Part shown: in pieces, positions 1,138 to 3,405 of the stretch | Layout of the letters: the number at the start of each line of letters is the position of its first letter | How positions within the stretch are numbered: the stretch's first letter is position 1 | Source: Escherichia phage EC3-1 | Length of the DNA: 44,405 bases | Sequence record: PQ571288.1 | Strand: one strand, 5' to 3' | The notes under the pieces: generated by a model | The model's database searches: none | The model's input: the letters and a program-made list of their open reading frames with translations, nothing else | Told to the model about the DNA's origin: nothing | Program-made: the position numbers and the translations under genes

Positions 1138-3405
1138 ATGTCCGATGTAATTTTATCCTACTCGTGGTCACGTCGCAACGCGCGGGCGGAGAAAAAGGAT
1201 ATAAACGTCAGAACCACACACACGGCAACACTGGACGACCTGAAAGAGTTAATCCAGCCACTCGATGCCGTTCGTGACGGGATTAACCCTAAGACCGCAC
1301 CAGGTTATATCACCGCCGCGTGTGACTCTACGCACAGCACCGTAAAAGACCCGGAAACTGGCGACTTTAAGCAAGCGCGTAAAGGCTTTTTCTATCGCTG
1401 TGACGCGTCTGTAAGCAAATCGTCGCTGGCGTATCTGGATTTCGACAGCGCAACACCGGAAGAGTATCAGGAAGCGGTGCGCCTGGTTAAGCGTAGCCGC
1501 CGGGCCATGTGCCTCTACACTACGGCATCACATACGGATGAGTCCCCTCGCTTTCGTGTCGTCATGCCGCTGGCCCGTCCGGTTGAAGGTGGTGACATCA
1601 TCCGCGTCCGTCATGGGTTGCTGGAGCACTTCTTCAAAGGCATGGGCGCAGACCGCAGCGGGTTTACCCTGTCTCAGCCGATGTACCTGCCACCGGTTGG
1701 CGCTACCGTTATCTGGCCGCGCCGCAACGACCTGATTGACCCGGACGAGTTACTGGAAGGCGTACCGGATTACGAGGTTAGCAGCGCATCGGATTACCAG
1801 ATACCGGAAGAACTGCGCACCGCGTTTACTGATGCGTTCGAAGCATTGGCATTCGAGTACGGCGGTATCATGACGCCCCGCGGCCTTAAGATGCCAGCCA
1901 CACCAGAACACGCAGAGAACTACAGCGACCCGACACCACGCCCGGACGACTTCCTGTTGTGCTTCCCGCGCGAGGGGTATGAAGCGCCTAACGTAACCAT
2001 GATTCACGACACCGACATTACGGCAACCGAAGGCATGTCACCGAAAGAGGTGTGGAAATACGCGTGCGATGCGACCGGGCTGCCTTTCAGTGAAGTCGCC
2101 GAGGCTATCGGCTGGGGTGCACGTGAATCTGTCTCATGCAGCCTCGACGACCTGGAAGACGACGAGGACTCAGAGGAGGACGAGTTACCGGAACCGGTAA
2201 AGGCTGATTTCATCGTCGAGGGGTACATGCCGTCGGATTGTATCTGGGATATTGTCGGGGAATCTGGTACGTACAAATCGTTCTATACGTTGGGGATGAT
2301 GTACCTGAGCGCGGCGGGATACCGGTTTGCGGGGGCGGATACCCAGCGTTGTCACCATTTCTATATCGACGGTGAAGGGGGTGCAGCTACACGCACACGT
2401 ATTGATGCACTCGCAGCTAAATATGGCGAGGAAGGTAAAGATTATGTACACGTCATTGATATGGGCGAAGTCGGCAAACTGAAAAGCCTGATTAAGTTAA
2501 TGCGCGAAACTGCGGGCGATGAACCTATCGGCATGGTCGCGTTCGACACCCTTAACCAGACCCTGGCCCTGACGATTGATAAGTTTGACGAGAACAGTTC
2601 ATCAACGGCAATTGGCATGGGTAAGGTTATCTCCATCCTGAAAGAAGTGCGTGATGCGACTAAAGCCGCGGTAGGTGTTGTTCACCACACACCGAAAGGC
2701 GGAAAGAAGGCTCGAGGTAGCGGGGCGCTGTACGCGGGCGTCGACGTGGAACTGACAATCGAACGCGCAACCGACCGTCAGATAAATGTATACCACTCTA
2801 AATTTAAGCACGGCCCACAACAGAAGACGGTCGGCATGGTGCTGGAGTCGGTACAGTTCCGTGAAGCGCCACCGCCGAAAGAGTACCGTGCGGTTGAGTT
2901 CCTGGGTAACACAGATGAATACGGCACAATCGTTAACCTGGACCTGCCGGAGCCACATAAGGCACTTGTGTTAATGCCGTGGGGCTTCGAGCCGTTCAAA
3001 ACTGACGAGGAGAAAGAGCGGGAAGAAGGGCTGACGAAAGAAGGTAAAGAAAACGTACGTAAAACCGTAGAGAACGCCGTCAACAGTTCAGAAGCCACGA
3101 TACTGGCTGCGTTTGAACTGGCGGAAGGAACCTACAACGGCAACGAAGGTATCACGGTAGCCGCAGCGAATAAGCTCGCACAGTCAGACCCCAACTCAAA
3201 GGCGTTTAACTCCAAAGAAGCCATAGAACGCGGGAAGATTAAGAAAATGGTTGAGGCCGGGTATCTTGTGCCGGGAACCGACGAAAACAATCAGATAATC
3301 CCTGGCCGCTACAGGCTGAACACCCGGATAACAGATAACAAGATTCCTAAGACAATATACGAACCGAATGAAATGCTGACAGTGACAGAGGAGGATTTGG
3401 AATGA
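1138..3405 (+). CDS. Primase-polymerase (AEP-type) / replicative helicase fusion
   Basis: N-terminal YLDFDSA (DxD) and SHTDE motifs typical of archaeo-eukaryotic primase-polymerase domains; C-terminal Walker A GESGTYKS, Walker B VAFDT and VVHHTPK typical of RepA/DnaB-like P-loop helicases; ATG 1138 with RBS GAAGGA (track ORF opens at GTG 1096). Confidence 0.8.
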   Translation: MSDVILSYSWSRRNARAEKKDINVRTTHTATLDDLKELIQPLDAVRDGINPKTAPGYITAACDSTHSTVKDPETGDFKQARKGFFYRCDASVSKSSLAYLDFDSATPEEYQEAVRLVKRSRRAMCLYTTASHTDESPRFRVVMPLARPVEGGDIIRVRHGLLEHFFKGMGADRSGFTLSQPMYLPPVGATVIWPRRNDLIDPDELLEGVPDYEVSSASDYQIPEELRTAFTDAFEALAFEYGGIMTPRGLKMPATPEHAENYSDPTPRPDDFLLCFPREGYEAPNVTMIHDTDITATEGMSPKEVWKYACDATGLPFSEVAEAIGWGARESVSCSLDDLEDDEDSEEDELPEPVKADFIVEGYMPSDCIWDIVGESGTYKSFYTLGMMYLSAAGYRFAGADTQRCHHFYIDGEGGAATRTRIDALAAKYGEEGKDYVHVIDMGEVGKLKSLIKLMRETAGDEPIGMVAFDTLNQTLALTIDKFDENSSSTAIGMGKVISILKEVRDATKAAVGVVHHTPKGGKKARGSGALYAGVDVELTIERATDRQINVYHSKFKHGPQQKTVGMVLESVQFREAPPPKEYRAVEFLGNTDEYGTIVNLDLPEPHKALVLMPWGFEPFKTDEEKEREEGLTKEGKENVRKTVENAVNSSEATILAAFELAEGTYNGNEGITVAAANKLAQSDPNSKAFNSKEAIERGKIKKMVEAGYLVPGTDENNQIIPGRYRLNTRITDNKIPKTIYEPNEMLTVTEEDLE

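Follow-up and report, generated by a model that had tools for sequence, protein, structure and literature searches.

The window, by which we mean the whole 44,405-nucleotide stretch of Escherichia phage EC3-1 (PQ571288.1) that was analysed, is that of a Kagunavirus-type coliphage, and a tRNA scan of it found none. It has a duf2800-gp2.5-polA module, a replication/recombination module described previously (PMC8093625), in adjacent genes at 5255-6520, 6835-7461 and 7523-9706, together with a gene for a replicative helicase-primase. The features that matter here are the following.

1096..3405, + strand: replicative helicase-primase (AAA_25, PHROG 3228)
2140..2169, + strand: internal acidic-leucine motif SLDDLEDDED in the primase-helicase linker, a second copy of the motif
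3370..3402, + strand: codons of the helicase-primase C-terminal motif E-M-L-T-V-T-E-E-D-L-E, kept in relatives with synonymous changes
3385..3405, + strand: copy 1 of the 21-mer, comprising the final six codons (TEEDLE) and TGA stop of the helicase-primase and holding the Shine-Dalgarno sequence and ATG of ORF 3402-3716
3388..3394, + strand: Shine-Dalgarno sequence GAGGAGG for ORF 3402-3716, within Glu-Glu-Asp codons (-12.0 kcal/mol against the anti-Shine-Dalgarno sequence, 7-nt spacer)
3402..3716, + strand: accessory ORF of 104 aa (PHROG 2638), between the helicase-primase stop and the terminator
3724..3755, no strand assigned: terminator-like hairpin, directly after the helicase-primase stop in relatives without ORF 3402-3716
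5255..6520, + strand: DUF2800 PD-(D/E)XK exonuclease, RecB/AdnA/Cas4-like with four conserved Cys (Pfam and PHROG, DUF2800/PDDEXK_1)
6485..6517, + strand: codons of the exonuclease C-terminal motif E-W-N-Q-V-T-E-E-D-L-E (alignment A1)
6500..6520, + strand: copy 2 of the 21-mer, comprising the final six codons (TEEDLE) and TGA stop of the exonuclease and holding the Shine-Dalgarno sequence and ATG of ORF 6517-6753
6503..6509, + strand: Shine-Dalgarno sequence GAGGAGG for ORF 6517-6753 (-12.0 kcal/mol)
6517..6753, + strand: accessory ORF (78 aa; membrane-type segment at the N-terminus), flanked by the exonuclease stop and the SSB promoter
6750..6778, + strand: sigma-70-type promoter (TTGACA, 17 nt, TATAGT) ahead of the SSB gene
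6835..7461, + strand: gp2.5-type SSB/annealing protein (PF10991, formerly DUF2815; profile matches), candidate partner of the tails
7396..7425, + strand: acidic-leucine motif SVDDLEDGEE of the SSB C-terminal tail, with an Arg-rich end (APRRERRRR) after it
7523..9706, + strand: family A DNA polymerase (profile match), alternative candidate partner by analogy with T7

The exact 21-mer ACAGAGGAGGATTTGGAATGA is present twice on the + strand, at 3385-3405 and 6500-6520, as the original prediction had noted, where no repeat would be expected by chance. Searching the window exactly gives these two copies and no others, allowing up to three mismatches adds none elsewhere in the window, and none of 100 dinucleotide-preserving shuffles contained a match to the 21-mer. 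The repeat can be stretched to 24 nt with one mismatch (23/24 nt), GTG in one copy and GTA in the other, both Val; beyond 24 nt, the flanks of the two copies are unrelated. Translation of each copy gives V-T-E-E-D-L-E-stop, the C-termini of ORF 1096-3405 and ORF 5255-6520, which bears out the earlier claim that the two upstream genes share an identical TEEDLE-stop. Their assignment as a primase-helicase and a Cas4-like nuclease likewise agrees with the AAA_25/PHROG 3228 and DUF2800/PDDEXK_1 matches. The helicase-primase probably starts at ATG 1138, judging from a profile match that begins at residue 15 and from Shine-Dalgarno energies, and the exonuclease probably at ATG 5270, its database homologues being 416 aa long. 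A third, 75%-identical copy at 25932-25955 lies within both an ORF of 391 aa on the minus strand and one of 157 aa on the plus strand; given this identity and position, it was rejected as a true copy and is taken as chance.

The same codons hold initiation signals for the small ORF that follows each enzyme. The pattern GAGGAGG-N7-ATGA occurs in these two places only in the window, with both Shine-Dalgarno sequences inside the upstream ORF and 7 nt before the start. Their duplex energy is the strongest of 15 starts tested, where the 1st percentile of background windows is -8.5. Start and stop overlap as ATGA at 3402-3405 and 6517-6520, an arrangement that is routine in this genome, which has 16 such overlaps, and the counterpart of ORF 3402-3716 is annotated with the same 4-nt overlap in OR594183.1. 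The strong ribosome-binding site and overlapping ATG of the original prediction are therefore as it described them, and on this geometry the downstream genes would be translationally coupled to the upstream enzymes.

The two small ORFs had been described as membrane-type proteins. Both do have a hydrophobic segment, at about residues 57-83 of ORF 3402-3716 (best Kyte-Doolittle 19-residue window 1.72 at residue 58) and near the N-terminus of ORF 6517-6753 (2.34 at residue 12), but in some relatives the protein in this position is soluble. The dN/dS values of the two families are 0.24 and 0.22, respectively. Among relatives, different accessory ORFs begin exactly at the ATGA, from at least five unrelated families behind the helicase-primase and at least seven behind the exonuclease, and in 31/47 (helicase-primase site) and 25/50 (exonuclease site) Kagunavirus/Jerseyvirus-type genomes no downstream gene is present at all. 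Relatives without ORF 3402-3716 read TAG gtaaaaagaaaggggc at the helicase-primase stop and hairpin. At the second site, the TGA of ORF 6517-6753 sits within the -35 hexamer of the SSB promoter, and in relatives without the small ORF this promoter begins 4 nt past the exonuclease stop. The tail codons follow the presence of the gene at one site: at the exonuclease, GAG-GAG is found in 23/25 relatives with a coupled ORF, and GAA-GAA or GAA-GAC in 23/25 without one. At the helicase-primase, GAG-GAG is found in 13 of the 31 genomes that have no downstream gene, so selection for the Shine-Dalgarno sequence is clear at the exonuclease site only. In genomes without a downstream gene, AGTGAAGAAGATTTGGAATAA encodes SEEDLE-stop (VSEEDLE with the preceding GTT).

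What the two enzymes have in common is an 11-residue C-terminal peptide, E-Φ-x-x-V-T-E-E-D-L-E, and the 21-nt repeat exists because both carry this same deeply conserved sequence. Both tails are kept, with synonymous variation, in 74 IMG/VR relatives. The peptide falls within an acidic-leucine motif, [ST]-[DE]-[DE]-D-L; further copies of this motif lie in the linker between primase and helicase and in the acidic tail that the gp2.5-type SSB carries. Counting only ORFs of 150 aa or more, the motif occurs four times versus 0.13 expected, all within three replication proteins, and in this one phage it lies at the extreme C-terminus of both the helicase-primase and the exonuclease. The linker copy is kept in all four phage groups examined (CSLDDLEDD, CDEEDLDDE, CTDEDLDDD and CTDADLDNE), and at the DNA level it forms a 29-nt repeat, 90% identical, with 7396-7424 of the SSB gene. 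Within the exonuclease, D419 and L420 are invariant, and E418 nearly so, in alignment A1, whose sequences are about 50% identical. The Pfam DUF2800 model spans residues 18-410, and the tail falls outside it.

The tails also change together. Kagunavirus genomes have VTEEDLE on both the helicase-primase and the exonuclease, Klebsiella 37P2-like phages have ASDEDLNS and ASDEDLS, and Dhillonvirus genomes have ATDDDLKD and ATDEDLSNE, even though the helicase-primases of the latter two groups are only about 32% identical to that of the window. Matching variants of the two enzymes occur in four groups; since this co-variation comes from about four clades, it represents few independent events. Tail diversity was judged from 50%-clustered representatives, the other homologue search having given only relatives of at least 95% identity. 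For the wider locus, the search patterns were drawn from an 8-sequence alignment, a 32-sequence alignment being too divergent. Across about 80 diverse duf2800-gp2.5-polA phages, the tails of exonuclease and SSB follow one two-part pattern, D-F-x-x-[VLI] and then an acidic run with L, F or M at its end, which is present in 70/83 exonucleases, 77/84 SSBs and 1/40 helicase-primase homologues. The hydrophobic residue of the window tails is Leu at position -2, and distant relatives end in L, F or M plus a small residue. Within genomes, the identity of exonuclease and SSB over the last four residues is 1.44, versus 0.87 when permuted (p ≤ 5e-5), and the match persists in a stringently de-duplicated set of 27 pairs; matching ends include DMI/DMI, SLI/SLI and EDFS/EDFS. 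Thus, in a very common phage module, the exonuclease and SSB, and in enterobacterial siphoviruses also the helicase-primase, have a C-terminal peptide in common, and its variants change in step within genomes. Full-text literature searches for DUF2800 and DUF2815 turned up no shared, co-varying C-terminal peptide, and a literature search on Kagunavirus and helicase-primase gave no hits.

We think it likely that the two junctions look alike for two stacked reasons, a shared docking peptide and coupling signals that lie in its codons. By analogy with the tails of T7 proteins, the peptide would tether two enzymes that produce single-stranded DNA (ssDNA), the helicase by unwinding and the exonuclease by resection, to one partner. 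The most likely candidate is the gp2.5-type SSB/annealase, with a groove known to accept acidic tails: in crystals of DUF2815 SSBs and of T7 gp2.5, the acidic C-terminus docks in the groove of a neighbouring molecule (PMC5686142). The family A polymerase would be an alternative partner, as it is for the acidic tails of T7 gp4 and gp2.5. The second layer would follow from codon usage. GAG-GAG-GAT, encoding Glu-Glu-Asp, is a near-perfect Shine-Dalgarno sequence and the final GAA-TGA contains an ATG, so any small gene directly behind the tail is supplied, without further cost, with strong ribosome binding and with stop-start coupling. With peptide and signals both fixed, few synonymous choices would be left, and in this genome these chance to coincide. 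At the DNA level the finding is then ordinary, two stop-start junctions that are alike through encoding one peptide, and the interesting part is the shared, co-varying protein tail.

It is also conceivable, although unlikely, that each tail belongs to the structure of its own enzyme, packed against that fold without a common partner, and that the likeness reflects convergence on an acidic amphipathic C-terminal cap. The AlphaFold2 (AF2) model of the exonuclease is a confident one (mean pLDDT 92.8; Foldseek matches to AdnA, AddB, MGME1, Dna2 and Cas4; C32, C269, C272 and C278 invariant in alignment A1). PDB entry 6m9k was also among the fold-search matches. The model has a short helix at residues 412-415, in a block with pLDDT 91, and does not show the disorder of T7-type docking tails, and the DKRP segment ahead of the tail is nearly invariant across DUF2800 proteins; the tail may pack on the enzyme itself rather than hang free. 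A disordered C-terminal region has been ascribed to a DUF2800 protein in a preprint. However, one motif of 7 to 11 residues is common to the helicase-primase, exonuclease and SSB, whose folds are unrelated; the tails vary in step within genomes, as independent caps would not; and the equivalent tail of the SSB family, itself unstructured, docks in trans in the crystals (PMC5686142).

The original prediction had taken the repeat for a portable coupling cassette, duplicated or shuffled, that links helicase and nuclease stoichiometrically to small membrane partners. We consider this distinctly improbable, and as the cause of the repeat it is largely refuted. The Shine-Dalgarno sequence and ATGA overlap are real and strong, the hydrophobic segments are there in both downstream ORFs, and a small N-terminal membrane-type protein recurs behind the exonuclease in Kagunavirus, Jerseyvirus-type and Klebsiella 37P2-like genomes, where families 1, 6 and 11 are remote homologues; for ORF 6517-6753, such homologues in other genera were found at hhalign values of 92.5% and 80.6%. 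Dhillonvirus genomes have other membrane-type ORFs in this position, and an ORF is coupled to the exonuclease in 7/7 Klebsiella 37P2-like and 14/16 Dhillon-like genomes. The two small proteins of the window are nevertheless unrelated to each other, not paralogs as had been proposed for checking (blastp E = 5.8; hhalign 0.1%), and none of 19 downstream ORF families occurs at both sites. Stoichiometric coupling to a fixed membrane partner is hard to reconcile with the many close relatives that lack the gene, with its replacement by soluble proteins (families 5, 8, 9 and 12), or with retention of the peptide through other codons where no gene follows. In 80 distant modules, the exonuclease gene usually lies directly before that of the SSB, with a gap of less than 150 nt in 51. 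Of the module shuffling once suggested, what holds is that small accessory genes are swapped at these junctions; the 21-mer itself was neither duplicated nor shuffled.

A recent copying of one 3' end onto the other at the DNA level, by gene conversion or short-patch recombination (for example by a phage exonuclease/annealase), is very improbable: it would account for the exact identity over 21 nt and 23/24 nt, for the minor Leu codons TTG/TTA and the GAT for Asp used at both sites throughout Kagunavirus and Jerseyvirus, and it could draw on a helicase-primase 3' end that recombines, but the similarity ends at 24 nt, the two sites differ over 18 nt by 3.03 within and 3.04 between genomes (p = 0.51; no concerted evolution), and in distant groups the peptide is still shared but is written in different nucleotides at each site. 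Among relatives, where the peptide is kept with synonymous changes, the two 21-mers are identical in 3/34 genomes only, and in 3/9 of those with both junctions coupled. At the DNA level, one gene may long ago have passed its tail to the other. The helicase-primase 3' end is, from comparison of its alleles, a demonstrated recombination boundary: the final 60 nt retain 93-97% identity in alleles whose proteins are only 32% identical.

A broader form of the docking-peptide reading is put forward more tentatively. The acidic-leucine tail could be a co-evolving address code, by which enzymes that make ssDNA copy the tail of the SSB to hand over nascent ssDNA, with a network that was rewired in the clade of the window. 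The tail would be on the exonuclease everywhere, and on the helicase-primase too in the enterobacterial clade, and would dock into the gp2.5-type SSB/annealase or trade places with the tail of the SSB in an exonuclease groove. In Kagunavirus, Jerseyvirus and Dhillonvirus, the SSB would have gained its Arg-rich end and the helicase-primase its two copies of the motif.

Should the peptide be a docking tag, its 11 residues would offer a simple handle on how poorly studied replisomes hold together. A tag could also explain how divergent helicase-primase alleles are exchanged between phages without breaking the replisome, since the final 60 nt of the gene are kept, and would be relevant to recombineering tools made from gp2.5-type annealases and nucleases. 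In addition, a ribosome-binding site can be built into an acidic tail that is functional as peptide, and the 3' ends of essential genes can thereby serve as landing pads for small accessory genes.

Comparison with known systems places the two junctions among familiar arrangements. As in stop-start coupling generally, an ATG overlaps the TGA and a strong Shine-Dalgarno sequence lies 7 nt upstream within the upstream gene; unlike the ordinary case, it is the codons for a conserved, functional peptide that supply the Shine-Dalgarno sequence, and nothing else about the arrangement is unusual. The gene ends also resemble the boundary sequences of mosaic joints in coinciding with mosaic breakpoints, divergent helicase-primase alleles sharing the last 60 nt only, but they differ from mosaic-joint linkers in that the conserved stretch is coding and constrained at the protein level, with no cassette exchange between the two copies. 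Like lambda Exo-Red beta and RecE-RecT, the module encodes a 5'-3' resection nuclease beside an ssDNA-annealing/binding protein. For such pairs, a dedicated exonuclease-annealase contact is thought to load the annealase on new ssDNA (PMC6393309). In lambda the Red beta contact is a folded C-terminal domain, whereas here we propose a short nuclease tail that would mimic the SSB tail.

The SSB tails themselves provide a second point of reference. The end of the E. coli SSB is DFDDDIPF, which the first half of the two-part motif resembles. Across about 80 modules, the SSB tail reads D-D-F-D-D-[VLI] followed by D-D-L-V, as in gp2.5-type (DUF2815/PF10991) SSBs, and the exonuclease tail has the same two-part motif. 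In contrast with the bacterial SSB tail (DDDIPF), the motif is on enzymes too and has no Pro-Phe end, and in contrast with gp2.5-type SSBs, the SSB of the window clade has lost the terminal hydrophobic end.

The closest parallel is T7, in which acidic tails bind basic patches of the polymerase and bring about contacts with helicase, SSB and gp6 exonuclease (PMC12593628, PMC5686142, PMC4124056); the gp4 tails bind basic patches on gp5 (PMC12593628), and the gp2.5 tail is required for stimulation of gp6 (PMC4124056). Several features set the window apart from T7. The pair that bears the tails here consists of a non-homologous AAA_25-type helicase-primase and a RecB/Cas4-like DUF2800 exonuclease. 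The motif T-E-E-D-L-E has Leu and then Glu, unlike the aromatic end of T7 and bacterial SSB tails, a second copy of the motif lies in the primase-helicase linker, and the SSB of the clade ends Arg-rich after its acidic motif. By sequence, the tails of the window are nonetheless like those of T7 gp4 and gp2.5 in being extreme C-terminal and acidic with a key hydrophobic residue, and, as in T7, they are carried by at least two proteins of one replisome whose polymerase is of family A and whose SSB is of the gp2.5 type.

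The 21-nt sequence ACAGAGGAGGATTTGGAATGA occurs as two exact copies in the window (3385-3405 and 6500-6520, both on the + strand). This identity, part of the original prediction, was recovered in an exact match search, with no further copy at ≤3 mismatches in the window and none in 100 shuffles. The copies are alike over 24 nt, with a single synonymous mismatch (GTG/GTA), and the likeness ends there. Each lies at the 3´ end of a long ORF, encodes V-T-E-E-D-L-E-stop, and carries GAGGAGG, a 7-nt spacing and an ATG overlapping TGA, an arrangement (GAGGAGG-N7-ATGA) restricted to these two sites in a pattern search of the window. 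We conclude that the repeat reflects, at the nucleotide level, a conserved acidic-leucine motif common to the C-termini of replication and recombination proteins, whose codons double as a ribosome-binding site; at the DNA level there is nothing unusual about it. The replication genes are:

1096-3405, + strand, replicative helicase-primase (AAA_25, PHROG 3228)
5255-6520, + strand, DUF2800/PDDEXK_1 exonuclease with four invariant Cys (domain matches, alignment)
6835-7461, + strand, gp2.5-type SSB (PF10991, formerly DUF2815)
7523-9706, + strand, family A DNA polymerase (domain match)

The last three form a module already described, duf2800-gp2.5-polA (PMC8093625), in a Kagunavirus-type (K1G-like) coliphage genome that is ~90% identical to K1G, K1ind, and NRG857CP3 and mosaic at 3000-7000. 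AF2 models the exonuclease with a mean pLDDT of 92.8, in a fold similar to the nuclease domains of AdnA, AddB, MGME1, Dna2, Exo5, and Cas4. The exonuclease probably starts at ATG 5270 rather than at the upstream GTG, given 416-aa database homologues, a Shine-Dalgarno (SD) energy of -7.3 kcal/mol, and an ATGA shared with the end of ORF 5001-5273; the helicase-primase probably starts at ATG 1138, the upstream GTG again being less likely (PHROG match from residue 15, SD -5.7 kcal/mol).

Early/replication operons are headed by near-identical promoters of one sigma-70-type family (TTGACAC, spacer, TATTATAGTT), at 3970-3999, 4014-4043, 6750-6779, and 10312-10341, and also at 23348-23383 and 32528-32563; two divergent copies flank an HTH repressor-like gene (3734-3949, minus strand). 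Terminator-like hairpins (AAGGCCCC-loop-GGGGCCTT, then a T-rich run) lie at operon ends (12970-13010, 25480-25520, 32795-32835, 7469-7502). The window begins and ends with the same 141 nt (1-141 and 44265-44405), most probably overlapping ends of an assembly that is circular or circularly permuted, not a biological terminal repeat. Over the replication region, Escherichia phage vB_EcoM_SHAK7858 (OR594183.1) has the window's gene order at 88.6% identity; it is filed as Autographiviridae; Studiervirinae; Kayfunavirus and is a myovirus by name, which looks like a taxonomic mislabel.

Conservation at the repeat is that of a peptide. In 74 related IMG/VR loci, with both junctions read in each, the peptide is kept at both gene ends and synonymous positions vary; at an exonuclease end with a promoter directly behind, for example, AGT GAA GAA GAT TTG GAA TAA encodes SEEDLE-stop (VSEEDLE with the preceding GTT). 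The two tails match in each phage group, including groups with a helicase-primase only ~32% and an exonuclease 47-57% identical.

C-terminal tails by phage group (helicase-primase; exonuclease)
Kagunavirus: VTEEDLE; VTEEDLE
Klebsiella 37P2-like: ASDEDLNS; ASDEDLS
Dhillonvirus: ATDDDLKD; ATDEDLSNE

The exonuclease tail falls outside the Pfam DUF2800 model, and its residues D419 and L420 do not vary across the exonuclease alignment. Likeness between the two enzymes extends over 11 residues (E-M-L-T-V-T-E-E-D-L-E in the helicase-primase, E-W-N-Q-V-T-E-E-D-L-E in the exonuclease). An additional copy of the motif in the primase-helicase linker is kept in all groups (CSLDDLEDD, CDEEDLDDE, CTDEDLDDD, CTDADLDNE), and another lies within the SSB tail (SVDDLEDGEE). 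The acidic-Leu motif occurs four times in window ORFs of ≥150 aa, against 0.13 expected, confined to these three proteins. A 29-nt, 90% identical repeat is a second nucleotide echo of the motif: at 2140-2168 it encodes SLDDLEDDE of the linker, and at 7396-7424 SVDDLEDGE of the SSB tail.

At least three types of helicase-primase allele, of 769, 760, and 753 aa, are present among Kagunaviruses; one is just 32% identical to the window protein. Comparison of six related phage loci (L020, L027, L038, L040, L042, L044) showed the last 60 nt of the alleles (window 3346-3405) to be 93-97% identical, the likeness falling off abruptly further 5´, at a sharp mosaic boundary inside the 3´ end of the gene. 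Since divergent alleles share these 60 nt, the tail-coding end is a recombination boundary, which fits a tail that needs compatibility with the rest of the module.

The repeat was originally interpreted as a duplicated translational-coupling cassette serving small membrane partners, and this holds in part. The strong ribosome-binding site and overlapping ATG are present at both copies: the GAG-GAG-GAT SD (-12.0 kcal/mol) is the strongest among 15 starts tested, the first percentile of background windows being -8.5, and such ATGA overlaps are commonplace (16 in this genome). dN/dS values of 0.05-0.24 in the small-ORF families, together with a PHROG 2638 match and an annotation with the same overlap in a GenBank relative, both for the 104-aa ORF (3402-3716), mark the small ORFs as real genes. 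Each fills the gap between an essential-gene stop and the next regulatory element, a terminator at 3724-3755 for the 104-aa ORF and a promoter at 6750-6778 for the 78-aa ORF (6517-6753), whose TGA lies inside the -35 hexamer. In relatives the slot is occupied by unrelated genes or empty.

Genomes with a coupled ORF (behind helicase-primase; behind exonuclease)
Kagunavirus/Jerseyvirus type: 16/47; 25/50
Klebsiella 37P2-like: 0/7; 7/7
Dhillon-like: 0/14; 14/16

At the exonuclease site, 23/25 genomes with coupling have GAG-GAG, and 23/25 lacking it have GAA-GAA or GAA-GAC; at the helicase-primase site the Glu codons do not track coupling. The membrane-partner idea draws some support from the occupants behind the exonuclease, mostly small N-terminal membrane-type proteins including three remotely homologous families, though as a facultative trait of particular clades. 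These homologues (window 6517-6753; loci L062-L069, L052, L056, L058, L016; several genera) share an N-terminal hydrophobic segment and the ending KITG[VW]K (hhalign 92.5% and 80.6%). The Dhillonvirus gene behind the exonuclease starts 8 nt upstream of the exonuclease stop. Across the wider family the exonuclease usually has the SSB gene directly behind it.

Duplication or module shuffling did not hold up. The two small ORFs, compared as possible paralogs, are unrelated proteins, and among downstream ORFs of relatives no family is common to both sites. Copying between the tails is rejected, their nucleotide differences being the same within genomes as between them (3.03 and 3.04 of 18, p = 0.51), with no within-genome excess likeness. 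The 21-mers are identical in only 3/34 genomes, and in 3/9 where both junctions are coupled. Because peptide, SD and ATGA are fixed, few synonymous choices are left, and among these the two copies in this genome coincide by chance.

In a set of 150 DUF2800 representatives at 28-59% identity, those nearest have the ending x-[ST]-[DN]-[DE]-D-L-x; those further away carry D-F-[DE]-[DE]-[LV], in many cases with a terminal D-L-[ILV] after it. Across ~80 diverse module loci this two-part tail is common to exonucleases (70/83) and SSBs (77/84); 9/69 polymerases match its first half, with none having an acidic-hydrophobic terminus. Since just 1/40 helicase-primase homologues carry it, the helicase-primase acidic-Leu tail is a speciality of the enterobacterial clade. 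Exonuclease and SSB share 1.44 of their last four residues within genomes versus 0.87 across (p ≤ 5e-5; DMI/DMI, SLI/SLI, EFA/EFA, GLV/GLV, EDFS/EDFS), a match that persists in 27 pairs after stringent de-duplication.

Enterobacterial-clade SSBs end in an acidic run, then an Arg-rich stretch (APRRERRRR or RPRRRRR; window 7426-7458 and loci L013-L086), seen in Kagunavirus, Jerseyvirus-type, Klebsiella 37P2-like, and Dhillonvirus phages, and coinciding with the gain of the helicase-primase tail; the ~80 more distant modules have the usual acidic-hydrophobic SSB tail. In one distant phage (L161, 8484-12458), five consecutive module ORFs have acidic-hydrophobic ends (PADDLG, EEDLF, EEELF, DEELF, DDDDLG), two being apparent halves of a split exonuclease.

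One peptide on three unrelated folds, co-varying within genomes, is what would be expected from a common docking site. Helicase and resecting nuclease both produce ssDNA, and in our preferred reading the tails tether the SSB/annealase to the helicase and exonuclease, with the polymerase as second-choice partner. The exonuclease tail is ordered in the AF2 model (helix 412-415, block pLDDT 91) and may rest on its own enzyme, exchanging with the SSB tail. We found no mention of the acidic-leucine motif in the DUF2800/DUF2815 literature searched. In crystals of DUF2815 SSBs and gp2.5, acidic C-termini dock in a groove of the neighboring molecule (PMC5686142). The gp2.5 tail contacts polymerase and helicase (PMC5686142) and is required for gp6 exonuclease stimulation (PMC4124056), and T7 gp4 acidic tails bind basic patches of gp5 (PMC12593628). 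With these as precedents, the acidic-leucine motif would be a further version of the T7-type acidic tail.
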